In this document: positions 4,353-11,654 of the stretch, one piece after another
Layout of the letters: the number at the start of each line of letters is the position of its first letter
Position numbering within the stretch: position 1 is the stretch's first letter
Virus record (IMG/VR): IMGVR_UViG_3300031965_000543
Coordinates: 1-11,654 of that record
Length of the DNA stretch: 11,654 bases
Direction: 5' to 3' (one strand)
Origin: a virus
Made by a program: the position numbers and the translations under genes
Notes under the pieces: model-generated
What the model was told of the DNA's origin: nothing
Databases searched by the model: none
Seen by the model: only the letters and a program-made list of their open reading frames with translations

Positions 4353-4361
4353 GGTTTTGAT

Positions 4362-4382
4362 GAAACTTTTCCTAAAAGTTTC
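4362..4382. promoter_or_regulatory. Palindrome family copy P1: GAAACTTTT-CCT-AAAAGTTTC (perfect 9-bp arms, centre inverted relative to other copies)
   Basis: Read directly. Lies between the stop of 2946..4352 and the SD/start of 4395..4643. Confidence 0.8.
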
Positions 4383-4394
4383 GGAGGTATTGAA

Positions 4395-4643
4395 ATGGAA
4401 GAAGATGTTAAACAACAAAAAGAAGTTATATCAGGTTCTCAGAACATGATTGATCAGGCAAGAGAGCAAGCTAATAGAATAGAAGCAGCTAATAAACGTC
4501 AAGAAGAACTAATTAAGAGACAAGAAGAAATATTAATAAGAGCTCAATTTGGTGGTAGGGCAGAGGCTGGAAGTAAAGACGAAACTCCTAAAGAAGAAAC
4601 CCCAGCAGAGTATAAAGAAAAAGTTATGAAGGGGGAACTATGA
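4395..4643 (+). CDS. Coiled-coil protein, scaffolding-protein candidate
   Basis: 82 aa, strongly charged and helical (QAREQANRIEAANKRQEELIKRQEEILIRAQ). GGAGG SD upstream (4383-4387). Position upstream of the decoration and capsid genes. Confidence 0.5.
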   Translation: MEEDVKQQKEVISGSQNMIDQAREQANRIEAANKRQEELIKRQEEILIRAQFGGRAEAGSKDETPKEETPAEYKEKVMKGEL

Positions 4644-4828
4644 GTAGAGAAGTTAAAATTAATAAGGAGCTAGTAGCAAAGATTGGTACAGAAGAAGAGA
4701 AAGCATGGTCAGATATTAAGAAAGACGCAACAGAAAAGAACAAAGAGTTAACTAGAGTTATACAAATCAATGAGCAAATAATTAAATATGCAGATACTAA
4801 AATTAAAGAAGAAAAAGGAAAAGTTTAA
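4640..4828 (+). CDS. Small coiled-coil hypothetical protein
   Basis: 62 aa, K/E-rich helical. ATGA overlap with the preceding ORF. Confidence 0.5.
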   Translation: MSREVKINKELVAKIGTEEEKAWSDIKKDATEKNKELTRVIQINEQIIKYADTKIKEEKGKV

Positions 4829-4852
4829 ATACATATTAAATAAGGAGAGGCT

Positions 4853-5266
4853 ATGGCATTAGAAGCAACATTAGTTTTTGAAACCGGTTTACCAATTCCT
4901 ATGCAATGTGCAAACGGTACAGGAATAGAGAAAGGGGCTATATTAAAATTATCTGATCCTTTTACTGTAGCAACAGCAGACGGAGATACTGACGCTGTTG
5001 GAGGTATAGCAGCAGAGGAGAAGATAGCTAATGATGGTAAGACTACTATAGCAGTATATAGAGAAGGAATCTTTAAAGGTTTTGCAGGTGCTGCTGGAGT
5101 TATAGTTGGTATGGGTATTATTACTGATGTAAGTACAGGGGCAGCTAATGAATTAGTCGTAGCAGATGTTAACTCAGAACATTTAGTAGGGATTGCTTTA
5201 GAAACAGCAACAGATACAGAATCATTTTTATTTGAATTAAAACCTTTAGGGTTACAACTAGCATAA
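4853..5266 (+). CDS. DUF2190-like head decoration / capsid cement protein candidate
   Basis: 137 aa, Gly/Ala/Val-rich beta pattern (GAILKLSD...AVGGIAAEE...TIAVYREGIF...GIALETA) resembling the DUF2190 family. That family typically sits directly upstream of HK97-type MCP genes. Strong SD AAGGAGAG upstream. Confidence 0.55.
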   Translation: MALEATLVFETGLPIPMQCANGTGIEKGAILKLSDPFTVATADGDTDAVGGIAAEEKIANDGKTTIAVYREGIFKGFAGAAGVIVGMGIITDVSTGAANELVVADVNSEHLVGIALETATDTESFLFELKPLGLQLA

Positions 5267-5284
5267 GCTTTTAGGAAAAGATTA
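5264..5284. promoter_or_regulatory. Palindrome family copy P2: TAAGCTTTT-AGG-AAAAGATTA (8/9 arm pairs)
   Basis: Read directly. Its first TAA is the stop codon of 4853..5266, and it ends 8 nt before the MCP start. Confidence 0.75.
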
Positions 5285-5291
5285 ATAGAAG

Positions 5292-6191
5292 ATGGCAGAT
5301 ACAAGCGGACAAGCAGACATTAGAGGATTAGACGTAGATAAATTAGCAAAGGGATTTGCTGAAGAAGATTTAGTATTAAAGAATTTTTGTAATGTATCAT
5401 CTACATCTGCAAGGGAAATCAGATGGTATCAGAAGACAGCAGGATTTATAACAGGAACTACAACTTCGGGAATGACCTCAGAGTTAATAGCTTTAGGTGC
5501 TAATAAAGCTATAGCTAGTGTAGCTGAGCAATCATGGACTAGAAATACAAGTTATGTAAGACAATATTTTGTAGAGTCTCCAACTATTTCAAATGCAGAT
5601 ATCAAAGATACAGATATAGATATCTTAGCTGCTAATATAAGAGATTTAACAAGATCAGTAAATAATCAAGTTGATAAAAGAATTTATGATGTTATAACTG
5701 ATAATGTTTCTGGAACTCCTTTTGATGGGAGCACAGTTACTTCTAACGCTGCAACTGCAGACGGATGGGATGACACAGTTACAGGAGATCCTATTAAAGA
5801 TTTGATGTTAGCTAAAACAACAATAAGATTACAAAGTTATAATCCAGAAGGAGCAATATTATATATTCATCCTACAGAACATTCTAATTTATTACAATAT
5901 TTAATAAGTGTTAAAGGAAGTAGTATCCCTCAATTTTCTAGTCAAAAAGTAATGAGTGGAGTGGTTATGGAAATTCTAGGATTAAATGTAGCTGTGAGTG
6001 CTAACGCAACTACTGATTATGCTGTTGTATTTGTACCGAAAGTAGCGTGTACATGGAAACAATTTACTCCTATAACTGCAGTATCTATTAATGATCCAGG
6101 CATAGGAACTAAGATAAGAGTATGGGAAGAGGGAGAAGCAATCTTAACAGATCCTAATGCGGTCTGCGGAATAACTGATACGGTGGTATAA
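5292..6191 (+). CDS. Major capsid protein (HK97-fold candidate)
   Basis: 299-aa ORF in the canonical position after the scaffold-like and decoration-like genes. Size and sequence texture (ISNADIKDTDIDILAANIRDLTRSVNNQVDKRIY; C-terminal ILTDPNAVCGI) are consistent with phage capsid family proteins. Not search-verified. Confidence 0.7.
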   Translation: MADTSGQADIRGLDVDKLAKGFAEEDLVLKNFCNVSSTSAREIRWYQKTAGFITGTTTSGMTSELIALGANKAIASVAEQSWTRNTSYVRQYFVESPTISNADIKDTDIDILAANIRDLTRSVNNQVDKRIYDVITDNVSGTPFDGSTVTSNAATADGWDDTVTGDPIKDLMLAKTTIRLQSYNPEGAILYIHPTEHSNLLQYLISVKGSSIPQFSSQKVMSGVVMEILGLNVAVSANATTDYAVVFVPKVACTWKQFTPITAVSINDPGIGTKIRVWEEGEAILTDPNAVCGITDTVV

Positions 6192-6193
6192 AT

Positions 6194-6361
6194 ATGACAT
6201 TACAAACTTGTTATAAAAGGTTAGAAATTGCAAAAGCTTCAAATAATCAGAAACAGGTTAAATTATGGGAAGAAAGAATTAAAAGAAAAGAATCCAAATA
6301 TAAAGAAACTGAAATTTATGATGTTCCTAAAAACTCCAATGGTAAGAAATCAAAGAGATGA
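6194..6361 (+). CDS. Hypothetical small protein (55 aa), not in the supplied ORF track
   Basis: Hand translation from ATG 6194 (2 nt after the MCP stop): MTLQTCYKRLEIAKASNNQKQVKLWEERIKRKESKYKETEIYDVPKNSNGKKSKR, stop TGA 6359-6361. It competes with the TTG-started 5' part of track ORF 6228..6509, which is in another frame. Confidence 0.35.
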   Translation: MTLQTCYKRLEIAKASNNQKQVKLWEERIKRKESKYKETEIYDVPKNSNGKKSKR

Positions 6362-6509
6362 AGGAAAAGGTAGTTATACAGTAACAAATCATTCTGTAGA
6401 CAGAGCTTTAGATTGTAATGGAGATGATGATTTAGCAACTGCGGATGTTCTAGGATCATTAATTGCAGATCTAATTGAAGCTGGAATTATTAAAGGTAGT
6501 GTAAGTTAA
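6318..6509 (+). CDS. Hypothetical protein (start uncertain: ATG 6318, 6321 or 6339; the track calls TTG 6228)
   Basis: The C-terminal part (SYTVTNHSVDRALDCNGDDDLATADVLGSLIADLIEAGIIKGSVS) looks protein-like. The 5' extension to TTG 6228 is K-rich, overlaps the ATG-started ORF 6194..6361, and lacks an RBS. Confidence 0.4.
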   Translation: MMFLKTPMVRNQRDEGKGSYTVTNHSVDRALDCNGDDDLATADVLGSLIADLIEAGIIKGSVS

Positions 6510-6539
6510 TTATTTAAATAAGTAAATTAAATTAATTCT

Positions 6540-6692
6540 ATGGCAAATACATACAATCAAAAAGAACTTAAAACTAAATGGCCTATCACCTCAGGACTAA
6601 TTGCTGGGAGTACTAAACAAAAAGGAAGAAGATCTACTCTCGTACCAGAACGTGGTAGTTTAGTTCCTAGTAGAAAGAAGATAGGTGTATAA
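6540..6692 (+). CDS. Hypothetical small basic protein (50 aa), not in the supplied ORF track
   Basis: Hand translation from ATG 6540: MANTYNQKELKTKWPITSGLIAGSTKQKGRRSTLVPERGSLVPSRKKIGV, stop TAA 6690-6692, 1 nt before ATG 6694. It fills an otherwise empty gap. No obvious SD. Confidence 0.3.
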   Translation: MANTYNQKELKTKWPITSGLIAGSTKQKGRRSTLVPERGSLVPSRKKIGV

Positions 6693-6693
6693 T

Positions 6694-7047
6694 ATGGCTT
6701 ACAACAAAACAAGTCATATTCTAAATAGATTAACAGGTAGAAATAAAGCCGTTAAACCTAAATTTGAAACAGAAACTAGAACACCTATAGGAACAGACTT
6801 ATATCTACCTAATAACTCAGGAGTTAAGAGATCTCTTCAAGAGAAAGATCTAAGTTTTAATTGTCTGGAATTAACTGGAAGTGGAGGCTCTGAAATTAAT
6901 AGCGATATAAATTTCAATGGAGATATTAAAGTAAATGATACTACAGCAGTATCTGGTTATTTCGATGATGGAGTTAACTTTAGAATAACAGTTGTCAAGG
7001 GCATTATAACAGCCATAGAGGATAGTTCTGGGGCGGGTCATTCTTAA
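6694..7047 (+). CDS. Hypothetical protein, possible tail/fibre component
   Basis: The track ORF starts at GTG 6685, but ATG 6694 (MAYNKTSH...) directly follows the upstream stop and matches the MA- start seen in many genes here. Its stop is 1 nt before the next gene. Function guessed from its position in front of the lectin-like protein. Confidence 0.6.
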   Translation: MAYNKTSHILNRLTGRNKAVKPKFETETRTPIGTDLYLPNNSGVKRSLQEKDLSFNCLELTGSGGSEINSDINFNGDIKVNDTTAVSGYFDDGVNFRITVVKGIITAIEDSSGAGHS

Positions 7048-7048
7048 T

Positions 7049-8113
7049 ATGCCTGAGCCATCTTTATCTAATAAAACGTATCTCTGGGAGTTTAAAGATA
7101 GTACTGGTTATGTTATAAACTCAGCTATAACATTCGAAGATAATGGAGAAGGAGCTAGATTAGGTTATACTGAGGCTTTATTAGGAGACATAGTAGAAGA
7201 TTTAGATGATAATGATTTTAGTAATTGGTTTAGTGATGATACAGCAACACAAGATCTTTCATTAAAAAGATTTGGGGTAAGCTCTGCTAAATTTGAAAGC
7301 TCTGTTAATGATGATAGTCAACTCAATCTGGGTGGGGGAGTATCCTCAGGAACTGCTACCTCATATTTATTCTATGATAATGGAGCGTTAGGTACTACAA
7401 ATAGGATAATCCAGCTTAAGAATGGGGTTAATGGGAGGATATTCTTCTTTGGATACAGACCCTCTACATCTAATACAAATTATTCTTATAGATCTGATGG
7501 AGCTTGGATAGATTCTGGAATCGTAAGATCTGTTGGGTGGCACGACATAAAATATCTAGTTAATAACACAACAGGAACAGTATGTTATTTGGATGGACAG
7601 CAACTATTCAGTAATGCTGTTTTAATATCACATCCTGAGATATTTGCTGTTGTAACAAATACTATAAATCAACCATTATGGATAGATAGAATATTACATA
7701 ATAGGGCAATTCCTGGATTATATGTCCCTACTGGAGATCTAATAACTGCTGATGTGTTTCCTACTCGGGTTATTAGATGGCTAAGTAGAAGCTTTAGTAT
7801 TAGCTCTGATGATTATTGGAGAAATAATAAAAGTAATGTAGTTTTAAGTTTTAAAGCTAGTACTGATGGAGGGCTCTCATGGGGTACTAATTCTCCTAAT
7901 TATAATGATGATAATTATTCTGGGCTAAATGATAATAATTTAAAAAATATTAAATGTGATGGGGATGGCTTAGATGGGATTAGAATAAGAATAACTTTAA
8001 ATATATTTGCTGAAAAACAGCAAAGCCCTTTAATAAATCAATTAACTTTAAGTTATGCGGATAGTTCTAAACTTTATGATGCTAAACTTTATGATGCTAA
8101 TTTAGGATGTTAA
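7049..8113 (+). CDS. Putative receptor-binding / tail-fibre protein with a jelly-roll (LamG/concanavalin-like) central region
   Basis: 354 aa. The central segment (TSYLFYDNGALG...RIFFFGYRP...GWHDIKYLVNNTTGTVCYLDGQQLFSN) resembles LamG/ConA-like lectin folds. It is the last gene of the structural block. The C-terminus carries a KLYDA tandem duplication. Confidence 0.6.
   Translation: MPEPSLSNKTYLWEFKDSTGYVINSAITFEDNGEGARLGYTEALLGDIVEDLDDNDFSNWFSDDTATQDLSLKRFGVSSAKFESSVNDDSQLNLGGGVSSGTATSYLFYDNGALGTTNRIIQLKNGVNGRIFFFGYRPSTSNTNYSYRSDGAWIDSGIVRSVGWHDIKYLVNNTTGTVCYLDGQQLFSNAVLISHPEIFAVVTNTINQPLWIDRILHNRAIPGLYVPTGDLITADVFPTRVIRWLSRSFSISSDDYWRNNKSNVVLSFKASTDGGLSWGTNSPNYNDDNYSGLNDNNLKNIKCDGDGLDGIRIRITLNIFAEKQQSPLINQLTLSYADSSKLYDAKLYDANLGC
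8067..8100 (+). repeat. 15-bp tandem repeat (ctaaactttatgatg x2.3) at the 3' end of the receptor-binding candidate
   Basis: Units at 8067-8081 and 8082-8096 plus a partial unit at 8097-8100. Encodes ...KLYDAKLYDA... Confidence 0.9.
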
Positions 8114-8114
8114 A

Positions 8115-8135
8115 TAAGCTTTTAGAAAAAGCTTA
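8115..8135. promoter_or_regulatory. Palindrome family copy P3: TAAGCTTTT-AGA-AAAAGCTTA (perfect 9-bp arms), followed by an extra half-site AAAAGCTT at 8139-8146
   Basis: Read directly. Begins 2 nt after the stop of 7049..8113. Confidence 0.8.
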
Positions 8136-8149
8136 AAGAAAAGCTTAAA

Positions 8150-8165
8150 CTTCTTTCAAAAGAAG
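8150..8165 (+). terminator. Small hairpin CTTCTT-tcaa-AAGAAG after the structural operon, with a T5 run further downstream (8189-8193)
   Basis: Read directly. AT-rich 6-bp stem with no adjacent U-tract, so only weak terminator character. Together with P3 it marks the end of the structural block. Confidence 0.3.
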
Positions 8166-8230
8166 CAAAATAGAGATAAGTTGCAATCTTTTTGGATGTA
8201 AATGACATGACGACAATAGCCACCGCCAGG

Positions 8231-8238
8231 TTTATATA
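8231..8238 (+). promoter_or_regulatory. TATA-like promoter candidate (TTTATATA) upstream of gene 8282..8749
   Basis: TTTATATA at 8231-8238, followed by more AT-rich TATA-like sequence, AGGAGG SD at 8268-8273 and ATG 8282. It matches the archaeal TATA consensus, but bacterial -10-like hexamers (tatatt, tataaa) also occur here, so the promoter type is unresolved. Confidence 0.25.
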
Positions 8239-8281
8239 GTTATTTATATTATCATATATATAAAACTAGGAGGTTTTACAA

Positions 8282-8749
8282 ATGAAAAAAATTATAACAA
8301 AAATTAGTGCTATAGACAATACAAAAAAAGATAGAAATGGTAAGCCTTATTTAAGGATACAATTAGAAGAAGATAATTCTTGGCATAGCGTGTTCAGAGA
8401 AGGGCACAAAGTAGACGCAATTCAGAGTTTAAATAACAATACTAAGGTTGAAGTTACTTTAGAGCAGAATGGAAATTACATTAATATATTAGATATTTCT
8501 CCAATAATTGAAGAAGAGCTAGTAGTTAACCCTATAGAGCCAGAGAAAGAGTTTAAACCTATAGAGAATAAACCTTTATTTAGAAGACATGAAGATAAAG
8601 ACTATAATATGTGGCTTAGTACTAGGTTAAGCTATGCAAAGGATATATATTGTGAAGCTATGAAGCAAAACAACAATACGTATTCTATAGATCACTGCGT
8701 TAAGTTGATATTGCATGCAGAAGAGTTACTAAAAGAGAGGAGCTTATAA
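8282..8749 (+). CDS. Hypothetical protein; N-terminal beta-rich (possible OB-fold) domain plus C-terminal helical domain
   Basis: 155 aa with strong AGGAGG SD. The N-terminus (KISAIDNTKKDRNGKPYLRIQLEEDNSWHSVF...KVEVTLEQNGNYINILDI) looks like a small beta-barrel, so nucleic-acid binding is a guess only. Confidence 0.65.
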   Translation: MKKIITKISAIDNTKKDRNGKPYLRIQLEEDNSWHSVFREGHKVDAIQSLNNNTKVEVTLEQNGNYINILDISPIIEEELVVNPIEPEKEFKPIENKPLFRRHEDKDYNMWLSTRLSYAKDIYCEAMKQNNNTYSIDHCVKLILHAEELLKERSL

Positions 8750-8770
8750 GAAAATAAAGGAGGAATTGAT

Positions 8771-9238
8771 ATGAAAAACAATTGTATAGATATACCAGAA
8801 TTAAACATAAGTGTAGAAAAAGAAGTCCATGATAAAGGAAAATCATGGGATGAGTTAGGTTTAGATTACAACAGAAAATACTTATTAACAGCAGAAGAGT
8901 GTATTTGGTTAGCTAATTCTAAATATGCTAAGATACTAAAAATGGATGGAAACTCTTCACAGGATGATTTCTTCATCCAACAGCCATTTAATAAGAATAA
9001 AGACTTTGACTATATCGCGGGGTTCTGCGCCTACTCTGGCGGGGCTAACCTCGATTGCGGCGGGGATTCGGCTTACTCGAATTCTGGGCTCGGGGTAAGA
9101 TTCAAAAAGAAGCTTTTAGGAAAAGCTTCACCAAAAGAAGCTTTTAGGAAAAGCTTCAAGGAAAGGGTGAAGGTTTGTGGTTTTGGGGTGACTCACCTCT
9201 TTTTTCCACGCCTCTTAGGCCTTCACCCCCTTAAATAA
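8771..9238 (+). CDS. Hypothetical protein; the 3' third is compositionally aberrant (GC-rich codons, then read-through of palindromic repeats and a hairpin+T6)
   Basis: AGGAGG SD and an AT-rich 5' two-thirds look like a normal gene. From ~9017 the codons switch to GCG/GGG/GGC/CTC/TCG (52/81 G+C by hand count). 9105-9158 is a 26-nt repeat translated in two different frames. The extent of the true CDS is uncertain. Confidence 0.5.
   Translation: MKNNCIDIPELNISVEKEVHDKGKSWDELGLDYNRKYLLTAEECIWLANSKYAKILKMDGNSSQDDFFIQQPFNKNKDFDYIAGFCAYSGGANLDCGGDSAYSNSGLGVRFKKKLLGKASPKEAFRKSFKERVKVCGFGVTHLFFPRLLGLHPLK
9105..9158. repeat. Tandem pair of palindrome family copies P4 (9109-9129) and P5 (9137-9157): GAAGCTTTT-AGG-AAAAGCTTC, within 26-nt direct repeats at a 28-bp period
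   Basis: aaaagaagcttttaggaaaagcttca at 9105-9130 and 9133-9158, identical. Each contains perfect 9-bp inverted arms. Confidence 0.9.
9165..9228 (+). other. GC-rich long stem-loop: GGGTGAAGG (9165-9173) pairs with CCTTCACCC (9220-9228); inner GTGG/CCAC pairing
   Basis: Reverse-complement pairs checked by hand. The element encloses the hairpin+T6 at 9185-9205. Confidence 0.5.
9185..9205 (+). terminator. Intrinsic-terminator-like hairpin GGGGTG-act-CACCTC followed by T6
   Basis: 6-bp stem (one G-T pair) at 9185-9199 and TTTTTT at 9200-9205. It lies ~30 nt before the stop codon of ORF 8771..9238, which is atypical. Confidence 0.35.
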
Positions 9239-9256
9239 GCTTTTAAGAAAAGATTC
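9236..9256. promoter_or_regulatory. Palindrome family copy P6: TAAGCTTTT-AAG-AAAAGATTC (7/9 arm pairs; same AAAAGATT variant arm as P2)
   Basis: Read directly. Its first TAA is the stop codon of 8771..9238. Confidence 0.7.
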
Positions 9257-9324
9257 ATATGAGCGTTACGATAACGTATTCAAAGGAACAAGCACTATGC
9301 CAACATTTAAATACTTTAAAATAT

Positions 9325-9351
9325 AAATTCACATAGTGAATTTACATAGTG
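9325..9351. promoter_or_regulatory. Inverted repeat AAATTCAC-ata-GTGAATTT overlapping a direct repeat of ACATAGTG (9331-9338 and 9344-9351)
   Basis: Read directly. Operator-like architecture in the ORF-free region. Confidence 0.6.
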
Positions 9352-9390
9352 CCTAATTCTCGACTAGTTCTTAAGTACTTTGAATATAGA

Positions 9391-9420
9391 GGGGTTTTAC
9401 GGGGTTTTAGGTGTTTTAGT
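9391..9420. repeat. Three 10-bp phased tandem repeats GGGGTTTTAC / GGGGTTTTAG / GTGTTTTAGT
   Basis: Read directly. T4 tracts are phased at one helical turn, giving iteron-like or bent-DNA character. Confidence 0.85.
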
Positions 9421-9440
9421 ACACGGGTATGGTAATAACA

Positions 9441-9461
9441 GAAACTTTTAGAAAAAGTTTC
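9441..9461. promoter_or_regulatory. Palindrome family copy P7: GAAACTTTT-AGA-AAAAGTTTC (perfect 9-bp arms, same A:T variant as P1)
   Basis: Read directly. It immediately precedes the GC-rich hairpin cluster. Confidence 0.8.
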
Positions 9462-9616
9462 ACTGGCTCGTAGCGTTGGGACGCTACTTCGCTGTGCTAT
9501 GTGGCGAGGATTCACCTCAAGCTCCTCTCCTCGCAGTAGCCCCCCCGCTCTCGCTGCCCCCCGCTGGGGGGCCAGACACTTGGCGAGTAGCTTGCCACTA
9601 CTCGCGGAACTAACCA
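9462..9616. ncRNA. GC-rich cluster of four consecutive perfect hairpins: candidate structured ncRNA or cis-acting origin/packaging element (strand undetermined)
   Basis: Four hairpins: 9470-9487 (GTAGCGT/tggg/ACGCTAC), 9504-9534 (GCGAGGA...TCCTCGC), 9556-9572 (GCCCCCC/gct/GGGGGGC), 9583-9605 (GCGAGTAG/cttgcca/CTACTCGC). 43/60 G+C at 9541-9600 versus 17/60 in a typical coding line. Only low-complexity ORFs overlap it. Confidence 0.35.
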
Positions 9617-9662
9617 ACCCCACCCACCCACCACATCCCACCGCCCACCCACCCACCCACCC
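9617..9662 (-). repeat. (CCCA)n on + strand / (GGGT)n on - strand: G-quadruplex / i-motif-forming tract
   Basis: + strand: accccacccacccaccacatcccaccgcccacccacccacccaccc. The minus strand of 9644-9662 reads GGGTGGGTGGGTGGGTGGG, five G3 runs with 1-nt loops. Confidence 0.85.
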
Positions 9663-9734: not shown

Positions 9735-9766
9735 ATATTTTATAGGCTTTTTATGGCCTATTTCGT

Positions 9767-9829
9767 AATCTCCATAGGAAAAGTAGGTTCTGGAGTATAT
9801 AGAAATCTCCATAGGAAGCGAAGGTTCTG
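9767..9829. repeat. Two 26-bp direct repeats at a 37-bp period (AATCTCCATAGGAA + AGGTTCTG core)
   Basis: 9767-9792 is aatctccataggaaaagtaggttctg. 9804-9829 is aatctccataggaagcgaaggttctg. The first 14 nt and the last 8 nt are identical. Confidence 0.85.
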
Positions 9830-9926
9830 TGATAGGTAGAGAGTCTGTAGTATCAAAATAGGTGTTTTCGGGTAACCTACGTTTCCAGTGGAGAAATATT
9901 GGTTTAACAATACATACCTATATATA

Positions 9927-9940
9927 TACTTACGTAAGTA
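9927..9940. promoter_or_regulatory. Perfect 14-bp palindrome TACTTACGTAAGTA
   Basis: Reverse complement checked by hand. It shares GTAAGTAC (9934-9941) with a second copy at 9981-9988. Confidence 0.8.
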
Positions 9941-9946
9941 CAAGTA

Positions 9947-9969
9947 TAGTAGTAGTAGTAGTAGTAGTA
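9947..9969. repeat. Trinucleotide microsatellite (TAG)7 plus TA
   Basis: tagtagtagtagtagtagtagta read directly. It lies ~40 nt upstream of the start codon at 10010. Confidence 0.95.
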
Positions 9970-9995: not shown

Positions 9996-10009
9996 GGATG
10001 GAGGTTAAA

Positions 10010-10204
10010 ATGAAAAAACATTACAATTTATATCTAAGCATAAACAAAATAGAGCCATTAAAAGAAGAAGGAATTAATATTTCTAGATTAATAGATAATG
10101 CTCTTTCTGATATTTCAGAACAAAAACCACTTATAAGAAGAATAGCAGAACTAGAAGAACAAAATAAACAAATGAAATGGGCTATAAAGAGGTTACAAAG
10201 ATGA
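10010..10204 (+). CDS. Ribbon-helix-helix-like DNA-binding protein with C-terminal coiled coil (regulator or small-terminase candidate)
   Basis: Start moved from the track ATG 9998 to ATG 10010 because GGAGG (10000-10004) sits 5 nt upstream. MKKHYNLYLSINKIEPLKEEGINISRLIDNALSD fits a beta-strand/helix/helix pattern, followed by IRRIAELEEQNKQMKWAIKRLQ. Confidence 0.55.
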   Translation: MKKHYNLYLSINKIEPLKEEGINISRLIDNALSDISEQKPLIRRIAELEEQNKQMKWAIKRLQR

Positions 10205-10428: not shown

Positions 10429-11650
10429 TAAATGGCAAGAAGAAGTACTAGCTACAAAGGGCAACATTTGCCTACGATCTGGTAGACAAGTAGGAAAATC
10501 TACTATTATAGGTTTGAAAGCAGCTCAATATGCTTTAGAAACTCCTGATAAACTTATTATGGTTATATCTAAGACAGAAAGACAAGCAGGACTACTATTT
10601 GCTAAAATTCTTAGAAATATTAATAATATTGATAGAAAACAAATAGAAAAGGGAAAATTAAGACCTACAAAACATCTTATTAACTTAAAGAACAAATCTC
10701 AAATACATTGCCTTCCAGCGGGTGATACGGGCTATGGGATTATGGGATTTACAATTGATCTACTAATTGCTGATGAAGCAGCATTCATCCCTGAAGAAGT
10801 TTGGAATAGTGTAATACCAGCTTTAGCAGTTACAGGGGGAGATATTTGGCTATTATCAACACCATTTGTTAAAAAAGGATATTATTATAATTGTTTTTCA
10901 GATCCTACCTTTACTTCATTCCATACAAGCAGCGAAGATTGTCCTAGAATATCAAAAGAATTCTTAGAACACAAAAGAAATACAATTACTAAAGCCCAAT
11001 ATGCACAGATGTATTTAGGTAAGTTTGTAGATGAAGTAAGACAATTCTTTTCTGATGAACTAATAAGAAGAACTTGTACCCTAAAAAGAAGAACTAAAAT
11101 TGGAGTAGGAGATTATGGCCTAGGTTGTGATGTAGCTAGAATGGATAGAGATGAATTTACTTATGAAATTATAGAAAGAATAAGATCAGATTATTTAGAA
11201 CAAGTAGAAAATATAATAACTAAAGACATTCCCCTACCAGAAAGTACCAGAAGAATTTTACACCTAAACCAGATATATGATTTTAAGAAAATATACATAG
11301 ATTCCGGAGGGATGGGGATTGCAGTTTGTGATATGTTAAAAGAGATCCCAGATATGAAATATAAAGTAGTTGAAATAAATAATGCACAGAGAATTTATGA
11401 TAAAGAAGAAAGAAAGAAGAAACTCATAAAGGAAGATCTTTACAATCATTTAAAGTCATTAATGGAAAATAGAAAAATAAAATTGTTAGATGATGATGAA
11501 GTAAAAGCTTCTCTTAAAGGTATACAAGCAGAGCACCACCCAGAGACAGGAAGACTAAAGATATATGGTAATGATAGTCATGTAGCCGAAGGACTAATAA
11601 GAGCCGCACAAATAAGTAAAGAAAAAAGCTTAAATATGTGGATACGCTAA
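10418..11650 (+). CDS. terL: Terminase large subunit
   Basis: 410 aa. Walker A-like RSGRQVGKST, Walker B LLIADEAAF, coupling motif LLSTP. RNase-H-like nuclease half with GCDVARMDRDEF, IYIDSGGMGIAV and GNDSHVAEGLIRA. Confidence 0.9.
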   Translation: MNLDKWQEEVLATKGNICLRSGRQVGKSTIIGLKAAQYALETPDKLIMVISKTERQAGLLFAKILRNINNIDRKQIEKGKLRPTKHLINLKNKSQIHCLPAGDTGYGIMGFTIDLLIADEAAFIPEEVWNSVIPALAVTGGDIWLLSTPFVKKGYYYNCFSDPTFTSFHTSSEDCPRISKEFLEHKRNTITKAQYAQMYLGKFVDEVRQFFSDELIRRTCTLKRRTKIGVGDYGLGCDVARMDRDEFTYEIIERIRSDYLEQVENIITKDIPLPESTRRILHLNQIYDFKKIYIDSGGMGIAVCDMLKEIPDMKYKVVEINNAQRIYDKEERKKKLIKEDLYNHLKSLMENRKIKLLDDDEVKASLKGIQAEHHPETGRLKIYGNDSHVAEGLIRAAQISKEKSLNMWIR

Positions 11651-11654
11651 GATA
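11530..11654. repeat. Terminal direct repeat, copy 2 (exact duplicate of 1-125)
   Basis: Same comparison as copy 1. The repeat lies inside the TerL coding sequence plus 4 nt past its stop codon. Confidence 0.95.

Follow-up and report, generated by a model that had tools for sequence, protein, structure and literature searches.

The window analysed, the whole 11,654-nt stretch of the IMG/VR virus record IMGVR_UViG_3300031965_000543, contained seven 21-nt palindromes (P1 to P7), all of which were located exactly at the coordinates and with the letters given by a preliminary description of the sequence. The core CTTTTNNNAAAAG was matched seven times in the window, compared to a mean of 0.09 and a maximum of 1 in 200 dinucleotide-preserving shuffles. 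The pattern used in the preliminary description, RAARCTTTTNNNAAAAGMTTN, was likewise found 0 times in 200 shuffles, and it was limited to P4 and P5 because its R bars the copies starting with T and its M bars AAAAGTTT. Arm mismatches were absent from P1, P3, P4, P5 and P7, with one in P2 and two in P6. The family sits at gene 3′ ends, as had been reported. Moreover, all copies were found outside conserved coding sequence; with a noncoding share of 10.5% of the genome, the chance of six independent sites falling there was ~8e−7, taking the end of ORF 8771 as ~9108, where its 251 homologues end. The seven palindromes are a genuine repeat family, at a density of seven copies in 11.5 kb. Four of them lie in or beside a large noncoding region with iteron-like repeats and GC-rich hairpins. 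The TerL of this virus is closest to that of Halogranum tailed virus 1, the name of one ORF 8771 homologue assigns it to a Pacearchaeota MAG, and the host is presumed to be archaeal.

The repeated unit proved to be 28 nt long rather than 21 nt, comprising a 9-bp stem, a purine-rich 3-nt loop and a 7-nt 3′ tail. The stem has the form N-AAGCTTTT/AAAAGCTT-N′ or the variant AAACTTTT/AAAAGTTT, and the tail the consensus A-[G/C/T]-CAAAA. Two subfamilies were present in the window, a GC-type with the tail A[G/C]CAAAA and an AT-type with the tail ATCAAAA, and both recur elsewhere; the tail subtype tracks the stem subtype. The flanking pair N/N′ was complementary in 66 of the 70 tail-bearing units (CG 20, GC 19, TA 16 and AT 11), and in 24 of 56 matches lacking the tail. 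The outermost stem pair thus covaries freely through all four pair types, and a formal count returned two covarying pairs, with a score reached by none of 500 shuffles. G.U intermediates were absent at both covarying pairs, a pattern no less compatible with a palindrome at the DNA level than with an RNA helix, while the free covariation of the outermost pair points to a hairpin and not to a protein-read half-site. The Thermococcus copies showed a compensatory change of T:A to G:C and loops of 6–7 nt; overall, loops vary in sequence (including GGG, CCC and GAG), and in Thermococcus their length ranges from 3 to 7 nt. Furthermore, the flank immediately 5′ of the unit is A-rich and depleted in C, which occupies position −1 in only 1 of 70 units. 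The compensatory change from G:C to A:T previously noted in P1 and P7 did not originate in this genome; it is the mark of a second subfamily also present elsewhere. Covariation over the family as a whole is nonetheless real.

P1 (4355..4382, minus strand) is an inverted unit occupying a 42-nt gap, with the AT-type stem GAAACTTTT/AAAAGTTTC, the loop AGG and the tail ATCAAAA when read on the minus strand. The stretch 4355–4382 is 89% complementary to 9109–9136 (P4), forming an inverted pair 4.7 kb apart, in agreement with the reported occurrence of the element in both orientations. P2 (5264..5291, plus strand) is a decayed unit, TAAGCTTTTAGGAAAAGATTA followed by ATAGAAG, that exactly fills the space between the final coding triplet of the cement gene (ORF 4853–5266) and the major capsid ATG, and its G.A mismatch destroys the RNA fold (−1.4 kcal/mol). 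P3 (8115..8142, plus strand), TAAGCTTTTAGAAAAAGCTTA followed by AAGAAAA, folds at −6.9 kcal/mol and begins one base past the stop of a 354-aa gene, the last one before a 168-nt gap; units identical to its 21-mer are present in 11 fetched loci, mostly archaeal. Directly after P3 there is a spare right arm, AAAAGCTTA (8139–8147, plus strand), with an extra AAAAGCTT at 8139, and the fold of 8105–8175 places a further small hairpin, CTTCTTTCAAAAGAAG (8150–8165, plus strand), next to the P3 region.

P4 (9109..9136, plus strand), located where ORF 8771 natively ends, is a consensus unit, GAAGCTTTTAGGAAAAGCTTC followed by ACCAAAA, with a fold of −9.2 kcal/mol. Units identical to it over 28 of 28 nt were found in Micrarchaeota (three loci), Thermococcus (one locus) and Novacetimonas (one locus). 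P5 (9137..9164, plus strand) is the tandem copy of P4 with a period of 28 and a diverged tail, AAGGAAA; both were flagged as terminator-like on the minus strand, that is, in the antisense form. P6 (9236..9263, plus strand) is another decayed unit, TAAGCTTTTAAGAAAAGATTC followed by ATATGAG, with no stable fold (−0.2 kcal/mol); it has the arm AAAAGATT in common with P2, and the 25-nt stretches spanning the two copies are 92% identical. As described before, the TAA of P2 and that of P6 are upstream stop codons, of the cement gene and of the read-through ORF 8771–9238, respectively. P4, P5 and a GC-rich hairpin encode the tail of the latter (9109..9238, plus strand), which is not part of the conserved ORF 8771 protein: all 11 aligned homologues (of 251) end around GVRFxRKKISKKSK, corresponding to window positions ~9108–9125. 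P7 (9441..9468, plus strand) is an AT-type hairpin, GAAACTTTTAGAAAAAGTTTC, that has lost its tail (ACTGGCT), folds at −6.8 kcal/mol and is placed in the large noncoding region directly before a GC-rich island. Regarding the GC-rich segments said to be bracketed by palindromes, 9158–9236 is indeed bracketed by P5 and P6, but it is the only one, as P7 lies just 5′ of segment 9462–9662 and does not flank it on both sides. In general, the AU-rich stems are weak, ranging from −7 to −9 kcal/mol in the foldable copies; P2 and P6 do not fold, so that a hairpin function is ruled out for at least these two copies, which resemble insertions in decay.

The 28-nt unit was absent from all 27 relatives examined (22 + 5). 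The junctions holding P1 and P2 measure 42 and 25 nt in the window and 0–11 nt, or overlap, in the closest relatives (a gap of 1–2 nt or overlapping genes for P1; gcaTAAatg, or 2–11 nt, for P2). As the genes of the relatives abut where the window has P1 and P2, these copies are recent insertions, and the unit was shown to have inserted recently and then multiplied within this genome. Copies were also absent from three large contigs that encode homologues of ORF 8771. Moreover, only ~5 of the ~21 gene ends in the window bear a copy and the relatives manage without them, so that any function must be dispensable. The relatives keep positional counterparts of the small ORFs, without palindromes.

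The same unit was found dispersed in genomes of DPANN archaea and Thermococcus, in intergenic gaps, at stop codons, immediately adjacent to tRNA genes and within tRNA introns, either single or, often, in head-to-tail arrays with a tandem period of exactly 28 nt. The tail was present in 70 of 130 genome matches, and ~55 of the ~65 loci concerned were archaeal according to our tally. In tRNA introns, the 28-nt module forms the 5′ end of introns that are otherwise tRNA-specific. Units occur directly after the tRNA-CCA and downstream of a ribosomal stalk protein gene in Thermococcus, and in Micrarchaeota an array starts on the aEF1A stop codon. AT-type and GC-type units were also found side by side, in this order and in the same orientation. 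The spread is patchy, some MAGs having many copies and the relatives of the virus and loci L157–L159 none. Similar units occupy gene boundaries in contigs of giant viruses and virophages: in the viral contigs, mostly from giant viruses, 115 of 118 units did not overlap any ORF, the nearest upstream ORF ended ≤8 nt from the unit in 15 of 18 cases, and gene pairs were convergent in 13 cases and divergent in 7. The virophage contig L184 had seven copies in 14 kb, several directly on stop codons. N/N′ covariation was not found in the giant-virus units, which may be analogous and not homologous, and the other viruses bearing units had no protein in common with the window virus. No publication giving the sequence of the unit was found in the literature searched. 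The preliminary description included neither the 7-nt tail nor the insertional origin nor the connection with tRNA introns and the genomes of archaea.

Window copies are oriented 6:1 in the sense direction, and units between archaeal co-directional gene pairs follow transcription in a ratio of 23:8. Those of tRNA introns and trailers are nearly all same-sense. The intron copies are not at 3′ ends. No U-tract follows the stems on the sense strand, so the units are not intrinsic terminators for the upstream genes, as the preliminary description had stated. Our preferred but tentative reading is that the units could be host-type hairpin cassettes marking the 3′ boundaries of cistrons on the transcript; the earlier suggestion of RNA processing or stability hairpins is thereby retained. 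Each unit would be transcribed along with the upstream gene and fold on the 3′ side of the cistron, where the hairpin might mark or shield the 3′ terminus of the transcript, or a site of processing, via a host factor reading the conserved stem and tail, in the manner of REP elements in bacterial operons or of the hairpins at which Mimiviridae and virophage transcripts end. The sense orientation of six of the seven copies would keep oligo-T off the mRNA, while on the antisense strand the hairpin with its T-runs would halt an archaeal-type RNA polymerase. The unit itself would be copied by a host-supplied, hairpin-specific enzyme. In favour of this reading are the family membership, the covarying hairpin, the insertions, the placement at 3′ boundaries, the orientation bias, the terminator-like antisense form of P4 and P5 and the archaeal affinities of the virus. 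Against it stand the weak stems and the unfolded P2 and P6, the lack of G.U intermediates, the intron copies, the small share of gene ends with a copy, the relatives without any, the missing sense-strand U-tract, the giant-virus units without N/N′ covariation and the copy-free contigs with ORF 8771 homologues.

The main rival, a selfish mobile mini-element of the REP or PATE kind with no role for the virus, is somewhat less likely. A hairpin-specific DNA enzyme acting in trans (e.g. of the Y1/HUH type) would mobilise hairpin and tail, insertion beside A-rich targets, including the element's own tail, would produce head-to-tail arrays, and copies would survive only where they do no harm, namely between genes, at gene ends and within tRNA introns. 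The clean insertions relative to the relatives, the patchy distribution, the exact 28-nt arrays and the 28/28 identity between distant lineages all fit such an element, as do the perfect palindromes without G.U pairs, the A-rich, C-depleted upstream flank and the decayed copies, of which the defective AAAAGATT variant was itself duplicated (P2 and P6). The linkage of tail to stem subtype recalls IS608, in which guide sequences are paired with cleavage sites, and the orientation bias could come from selection against sense-strand oligo-T. However, no transposase was found in searches of element-bearing loci: in weak tests, an IS608 TnpA query gave no significant match in 1.6 Mb of these loci, and a single TnpB query gave one fragment only, ~5 kb from units in L130. 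Neither target-site duplications nor a GTAG tag were found. Furthermore, the densities in the window virus and in the virophage, at gene boundaries, far exceed the cellular density suggested by the genome matches, which looks more like use than accident. A DNA-level signal, where a cruciform or single-stranded hairpin would act in packaging, in the priming of replication or as a boundary of recombination modules, would account for the perfect symmetry without wobble pairs, the clustering of four copies at the large noncoding region and the inverted 28-nt pair P1/P4, yet it is improbable, as the relatives replicate and package without units, the cellular units are found in housekeeping operons and tRNA introns and not at origins, and the orientation bias tracks transcription.

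Two further explanations fare worse. A promoter role, with the unit forming a symmetric BRE-TATA-BRE core that fires towards the GC-rich segments and the genes behind it, is very improbable, given that loops such as GGG, CCC and GAG, or of 6–7 nt, are incompatible with a TATA box, that the spacing of L082 puts the predicted starts within the capsid gene for P2 and within tRNAs for L074, L082 and L085, that units are present inside tRNA introns and that N/N′ covariation is left unexplained. On the other hand, the left arm AAGCTTTT is similar to the BRE/TATA part at the beginning of a canonical Woesearchaeal tRNA promoter (GAAGCTTTTTATAGCC) and is shared with the canonical promoter in L082, the distance of 12 nt from the end of the L037 unit to a tRNA fits that promoter's spacing, the downstream gene was co-oriented 27:13 in the tally of a first, noisy ORF analysis, and P5 and P7 precede GC-rich islands. 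The proposal of the preliminary description that the palindromes bind a dimeric regulator, taken here as operators for the RHH (9998–10204), zinc-ribbon or other dimeric protein of the phage that would act as stoperator-like roadblocks, is hardly credible. A 21-bp palindrome with 9-bp arms compares in size with Arc/Mnt-type operators, the genome has an RHH-like ORF (a weak CcdA match, E = 5e−4, below the curated cut-off), and copies lie in short intergenic gaps, mainly in one orientation; nevertheless, the unit abounds in archaeal genomes and in unrelated viruses with no common protein, its loop varies in length and sequence, its outermost pair covaries freely, its conserved asymmetric tail is unexpected for a symmetric dimer, and relatives have counterpart small ORFs with no palindromes.

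Among known systems, REP/BIME elements of Enterobacteria and Pseudomonas, associated with RAYT transposases, are likewise short (20–40 nt) palindromic extragenic repeats placed between operon genes or at operon 3′ ends, in both orientations and in clusters, with high copy numbers in some genomes and absence from close relatives. They shield upstream mRNA from 3′ exonucleases and disturb the termination of translation when near a stop codon, and the boundary-marking hairpins proposed here would act comparably. However, the 28-nt unit has an AU-rich instead of a GC-rich stem, a 3′ heptamer A-S-CAAAA instead of a 5′ GTAG or CGTC tag, and head-to-tail clusters of exact 28-nt period instead of alternating ones (REP elements are reviewed in PMC3733652). 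No RAYT-like gene was found, and the unit occurs in a small tailed virus and in archaea, also within tRNA introns, with similar units in giant-virus contigs. The subterminal hairpins of IS200/IS605 and PATEs resemble it in their single-stranded-DNA type of hairpin with a conserved stem and a short, co-varying conserved flank, in the adjacency of two related hairpin types in the same orientation (AT-type then GC-type), and in the lack of terminal inverted repeats and target duplication; still, its tail is immediately 3′ of the stem, its size is well below that of all PATEs described, and neither TnpA nor TnpB adjoined units in the weak searches of element-bearing loci. For the transposed tRNA introns of Thermoproteales, the account of Fujishima et al. 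2010 given in PMC4090602 regards the copying mechanism as unknown and probably DNA-level. Here, in contrast, the shared part is the 28-nt module only, at the 5′ end of tRNA-specific introns, it also occurs outside tRNAs and in viruses, and the lineage is DPANN.

The 17-bp intergenic palindromes of Cluster O mycobacteriophages and the stoperators of Cluster A similarly consist of many copies of one short motif in small structural-gene gaps, mostly in one orientation. These motifs are conserved across the phage cluster, are tied to the phage repressor or of unknown role and, to our knowledge, are not shared with host chromosomes, while in our case the relatives lack the motif and host-lineage genomes have it. 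Finally, the "hairpin rule" of Mimiviridae and virophages also involves palindromes in short gaps right after stop codons, usable from both strands: Mimiviridae transcripts end at hairpin-forming palindromes, which in Mimivirus are described as diverse in sequence and cut by a viral RNase III before polyadenylation (PMC4402537). Unlike these, the 28-nt unit has a conserved stem sequence and tail, and N/N′ covariation is lacking in the giant-virus units. Archaea, to which the presumed host belongs, generally lack RNase III as far as we know. The virophage L184, with its giant-virus-like hairpins, parallels the window virus with units of its presumed host lineage.

The seven palindromes of the preliminary description were all recovered exactly at their positions in the window, and their core (CTTTTNNNAAAAG) was observed 7 times versus 0.09 expected from 200 shuffles. 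The degenerate pattern offered there for the family gave no match in the shuffles, and as a description of the copies it held for P4 and P5 only. The palindromes belong to a 28-nt unit (GAAGCTTTTAGGAAAAGCTTCACCAAAA in its full form) with a 9-bp stem, a 3-nt loop and a 7-nt 3′ tail, placed on the minus strand at 4355-4382 (P1) and on the plus strand at 5264-5291 (P2), 8115-8142 (P3), 9109-9136 (P4), 9137-9164 (P5), 9236-9263 (P6) and 9441-9468 (P7). A total of 185,579 species genomes were scanned with AAGCTTTTARRAAAAGCTT, the bases flanking the 19-mer being left free and the arms being fixed by the pattern, and at least 120 loci were found. Among the matches listed, the palindrome was followed by the tail N′-A-S-CAAAA (N′ closing the outermost stem pair, S being G or C) in 70 out of 130. 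According to their record titles, about 55 of the roughly 65 tailed loci listed were archaeal, comprising about 45 DPANN (Woese-, Pace-, Nano-, Micr-, Aenigm-, Alti- and Iainarchaeota), six Thermococcus and two Methanosarcinales loci, and nearly all of the untailed matches listed were bacterial. Moreover, P4 was identical over 28 of 28 nt to units in three Micrarchaeota, one Thermococcus and one Novacetimonas loci.

The outermost bases N and N′ were complementary in 66 of the 70 tailed units compared to 24 of the 56 untailed matches among those listed, and all four pair types were represented in the former (CG 20, GC 19, TA 16 and AT 11). In the 47 distinct units, two of the nine stem pairs covaried, with none of 500 shuffles attaining the observed score, and no G.U intermediates were found at these two free pairs. 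For a test of the functional strand by G.U wobble asymmetry, the imperfect copies were too few and the arms were fixed by the search pattern. Furthermore, the Thermococcus copies had loops of 6-7 nt and a compensatory T:A to G:C change, and loops elsewhere included GGG, CCC and GAG. The unit is thus a hairpin and not a TATA box; the reading as an archaeal BRE/TATA core promoter was rejected because of these loop contents at the centre and because the spacing at locus L082 puts the predicted starts within the capsid gene and tRNAs. Pair covariation and loop variation also make a rigid dimer-binding site in duplex DNA less probable. The operator role for the RHH (Arc/Mnt/CopG-type) protein of the small ORF 9998-10204, previously suggested, was not supported, as the unit occurs beyond regulator-encoding genomes, in archaeal chromosomes and in unrelated viral contigs sharing no window protein, with loops of 3-7 nt. 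An RNA hairpin and a single-stranded DNA or cruciform hairpin both fit, the balance leaning towards DNA given the absence of wobble pairs.

A second subfamily, with arms AAACTTTT/AAAAGTTT and the tail ATCAAAA, adjoins the first one in the same genomes. It corresponds exactly to P1, and to P7 minus the tail, so that the arm differences of these two copies, formerly taken for a compensatory change within this genome, reflect two imported subfamilies. On its minus strand, P1 matches P4 over 28 nt (palindrome plus CAYCAAAA). The copies are related in pairs, as P4 equals P5 (in tandem with a period of 28), P2 resembles P6 (both having the defective arm AAAAGATT) and P1 resembles P7, which implies that the unit was copied after its arrival, including a variant that does not fold.

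The window copies are insertions. No counterparts were found at equivalent positions in relatives, where the preliminary description would have sought them: neither this nor any other repeated palindrome was present in 22 IMG/VR relatives (terminase 51-73% identical) or in the five closest ones (capsid 77-80% identical). The junction between the cement and capsid genes takes 0-11 nt in the closest relatives (e.g. gcaTAAatg) versus 25 nt in the window, which consist entirely of the unit, the resident TAA being reused. Similarly, the junction before ORF 4395 measures 1-2 nt or is a gene overlap in relatives, compared to 42 nt with an inverted unit in the window. The 11 homologues of ORF 8771 that were aligned, out of 251, all end at approximately GVRFxRKKISKKSK, and the window ORF (8771-9238), having lost the native stop, is extended by about 42 codons of inserted DNA, made up of P4, P5 and a GC-rich hairpin, as far as the P6 TAA. 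Taking this ORF as ending where its homologues end, all seven 28-nt copies are confined to the 10.5% of the genome outside conserved coding sequence, an outcome with a chance probability of about 8e−7.

The window genome is complete (11,529 bp) and circular or terminally redundant, bases 1-125 being repeated at 11530-11654, with all genes on the plus strand and a G+C content of 33%. Pfam identified a terminase large subunit, a portal, a cement protein, an HK97-type capsid protein, an SNase-like nuclease and a weak RHH-like match, and no recognizable replication gene. The family to which the virus belongs, that of 11-12 kb tailed viruses, is very large, with 1,698 capsid protein homologues found at E ≤ 1e−20, many of them on 11-12 kb contigs and some from Tara. 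The nearest capsid homologue among 5.8 billion proteins was 81% identical, and no closer relatives were found in IMG/VR with the receptor-binding gene and ORF 8282 as queries. The only identical contigs were those of the window itself, with six SNPs, none within units. An archaeal host, probably DPANN, is likely but not proven, considering that the best terminase match was the archaeal Halogranum tailed virus 1 (30.6% identity), that one ORF 8771 homologue is assigned by its source to a Pacearchaeota MAG, and that the unit has an archaeal distribution. The assignment of one capsid homologue to an Elusimicrobiota MAG is regarded as a binning artefact. The ORF 8771-9238 family comprises 251 proteins, 60-71% identical across the first 115 residues or so, and the three homologues examined lay on virus-like contigs of 14-53 kb (L157-L159); units were absent from these contigs, so the presence of the gene family is not coupled to that of the unit.

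Other noncoding features were observed in the window. A long GC-rich hairpin (GGGTGAAGG...CCTTCACCC) occupies 9165-9235 and includes on the plus strand a terminator-like GGGGTGACTCACCTC followed by T6 (9185-9209); the fold of 8985-9240 had a z of −4.6. A GC-rich island (55-58% G+C in the 33% genome) with several hairpins spans 9462-9662, ending in a (CCCA)n run (9625-9662) of G-quadruplex type on the minus strand. GC-rich hairpin clusters, several with TCC loops, appeared at the same place in relatives, upstream of small genes and the terminase gene (L012 1930-2005, L016 2123-2191 and L008 582-602). Possible roles of the island are those of a packaging site, an origin or a non-coding RNA, and it had no Rfam match. 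Further features of the large noncoding region are a direct repeat of 37 nt (76% identical), a TATATATA stretch and a (GTA)7 microsatellite (9751-9824, 9917-9929 and 9946-9968), and (TA)n stretches were also seen there in relatives. Moreover, TTTATATA at 8231-8238 has the consensus of an archaeal TATA box and precedes the ORF 8282 ATG by 44 nt; as it follows a 168-nt gap that begins with P3, a separate transcription unit 8282-9238 is suggested. Rfam gave no match at E ≤ 1 in the whole window, and the tRNA scan of the window found nothing.

The cellular settings of the unit were established with ARAGORN, Rfam and inspection of the sequences. In DPANN genomes, it was found at the 5′ end of canonical tRNA introns in the tRNA orientation (L131, L135, L133, L085 and L101) and within D-loop and T-loop introns (L076 and L152), with two copies in a single tRNA at L120. 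It also appeared 1-3 nt 3′ of tRNA ends (Thermococcus L048 and L148, and L126), and inverted directly 5′ of tRNA genes (L074, L082 and L085). Rfam detected only tRNA and 5S rRNA in 19 element-bearing loci. In a Micrarchaeote, an array of 4-5 units extends from the aEF1A stop codon towards rpS10, and others are situated upstream of rpS13 or between the genes for an aminoacyl-tRNA synthetase and aRF1. Between co-directional archaeal genes, 23 units were oriented with transcription and eight against it, a bias for which it is reason enough that reversed units would place runs of T5-7 on the sense strand. The unit was multi-copy in several DPANN MAGs, and the near-identical sequences in different DPANN tRNA introns recall the tRNA ‘intron transposition’ of Thermoproteales, which is described as unexplained (PMC4090602). 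Several side observations were made at these loci. A longer recurring module, the unit plus GAAAAGTTTGCA(A/G)AATTCAGCAGCAAACCTGCT.AAGCTT, was seen in a Micrarchaeota MAG (L063 1168-1250 and 7119-7246, L044 1830-1867 and L058 6789-6840). The GC-rich acetic acid bacterium Novacetimonas hansenii JCM 7643 (L054 and L099) had exact units beside other palindromes, including at L054 an AT-rich stretch of about 190 bp between two inverted units, with a MITE-like look. In Thermococcus, units lay in extended noncoding DNA flanked by convergent genes for tRNA, 5S rRNA and ribosomal proteins (L048 4900-5950 and L148 2280-2900), in which C/D-box sRNA-like sequences and GC-rich UUCG-type hairpins were noticed by eye.

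In IMG/VR, scans with the full patterns recovered 23 loci of the GC type and 55 of the AT type, many of them giant-virus MAG contigs. Two of these (L025 and L027) carried eukaryote-like genes (UCH, RING, SWIB and SAP), and their arrays had the architecture of the unit, including the tail. Perfect head-to-tail arrays were found in giant-virus MAG and other low-GC viral contigs (L171 at 11485-11707, L175, L195, L196 and L229), with up to nine copies at a period of exactly 28 nt, and 3-5 copies at periods of 28-38 nt in the others of this set; the arrays of L171 and L175 begin directly 3′ of a stop codon. Overall, 115 of the 118 units in viral contigs were outside ORFs, commonly starting on or just past a stop codon, with more convergent than divergent gene pairs (13:7) and an unbiased orientation (25:25). 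A virophage contig (L184, IMG/VR 3300050014_000478, 14.2 kb), carrying two capsid genes of the Sputnik type and one gene with collagen repeats, had seven AT-type hairpins, several directly on stop codons; five of them read N-AAACTTTT-NNN-AAAAGTTT-A followed by A-rich sequence, and two had an ATG within a few bases downstream, possibly starting the next gene. None of these contigs shared a protein with the window. N and N′ were mostly non-complementary in giant-virus and viral contigs, so the units there may be analogues rather than homologues.

The window copies are members of a cross-genome family of 28-nt hairpins, of insertional origin, with placement at cistron boundaries and a preference for the sense orientation. 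Their function is put forward tentatively, at somewhat less than even confidence, as that of transcript boundary hairpins read by a host factor. The hairpins would mark or protect transcript 3′ ends or processing points, a host factor recognizing the conserved stem and tail, and on the antisense strand the units may act as hairpin plus T-run terminators, where the sequence is TTTTTCT in P3 and P7, and T5 or T4 follows the hairpin in P4 and P5. An intrinsic terminator on the plus strand was discarded, as no T-run follows any copy and the terminator scan picked out only P4 and P5, on the minus strand; the sense strand of the unit has T4 at most, compared to the archaeal oligo-T criterion of at least five T. 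Against the boundary function, however, the stems are weak (−7 to −9 kcal/mol, with 2-3 G:C out of nine pairs) and P2 and P6 are unfolded, the relatives of the virus manage without units, and the tRNA-intron copies are located elsewhere than at 3′ ends.

The main rival, somewhat less probable than the boundary function, is a selfish mini-element of the REP or PATE kind that a hairpin-specific enzyme would move and that would be harmless where it persists; the arrays, decay, patchiness and stem-tail linkage fit it. No transposase was found by two weak tests, however: tblastn with an IS608 TnpA query gave nothing significant in 1.6 Mb of element-bearing loci, and the sole match of a TnpB query (from L158) was a fragment in L130 about 5 kb from units, with nothing adjoining them. 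Such an element and a boundary hairpin would not be exclusive, since REP elements are both. On a broader reading of similar probability, the unit would be an ultra-small mobile module not described before, or the recognition site of an undescribed machinery specific for hairpins, which colonizes intergenic DNA and tRNA introns in DPANN and other archaea, is carried from genome to genome by their viruses and serves as the vehicle of archaeal tRNA-intron ‘transposition’; it might also be related to the hairpin signals known from giant viruses and virophages. A CRISPR or solitary repeat was ruled out, as multi-copy spacings were of 28-30 nt without spacers, or irregular (47-300 nt).

In the library searched, full-text queries with diagnostic strings of the unit found no relevant paper, and the unit is without an Rfam model. 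The kind of element is already known, namely short extragenic palindromic repeats and boundary hairpins, and the family appears to be new in its architecture (an AU-rich 9-bp stem plus a 3′ heptamer, with tandem arrays of exactly 28 nt period), in its presence within tRNA introns and in its distribution over archaeal cells and viruses. A member of an unstudied family of 11-12 kb tailed viruses is likely tied to archaeal, probably DPANN, hosts by a shared cis-element, a shared gene family and terminase affinity. Moreover, the unit is a compact, easily searched 28-nt element with true stem covariation, located in housekeeping operons, next to tRNAs and in tRNA introns of uncultivated archaea, and offers a handle on near-identical sequences in different tRNA introns, canonical and non-canonical. 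A small dependent virus that would copy the boundary hairpins of its host system, as in the virophage contig, suggests a general rule for host prediction. In Thermococcus, a genus with cultivable and genetically tractable species, the AT-type unit directly follows tRNA genes, which may allow a functional test if the unit is present in such a strain.

Among known systems, the unit resembles REP/RAYT elements in being a short palindromic repeat within the 20-40 nt class, extragenic and multi-copy, but the profile of 70 units has no GTAG or CGTC tetranucleotide, its conserved flank being the 3′ A-S-CAAAA. Unlike IS200/IS605 elements and PATEs, the units had no TnpA or TnpB next to them in the loci searched and are solitary or in seamless tandem arrays. 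They also differ from MITEs, as the flank positions −1 and +21 are not repeats of each other, +21 being A in 55 of 70 units whatever the N. Finally, Mimiviridae transcripts end at hairpin-forming palindromes (PMC4402537), and the units in the window, the virophage and the giant-virus contigs are comparable to this ‘hairpin rule’ in their intergenic placement after stop codons.
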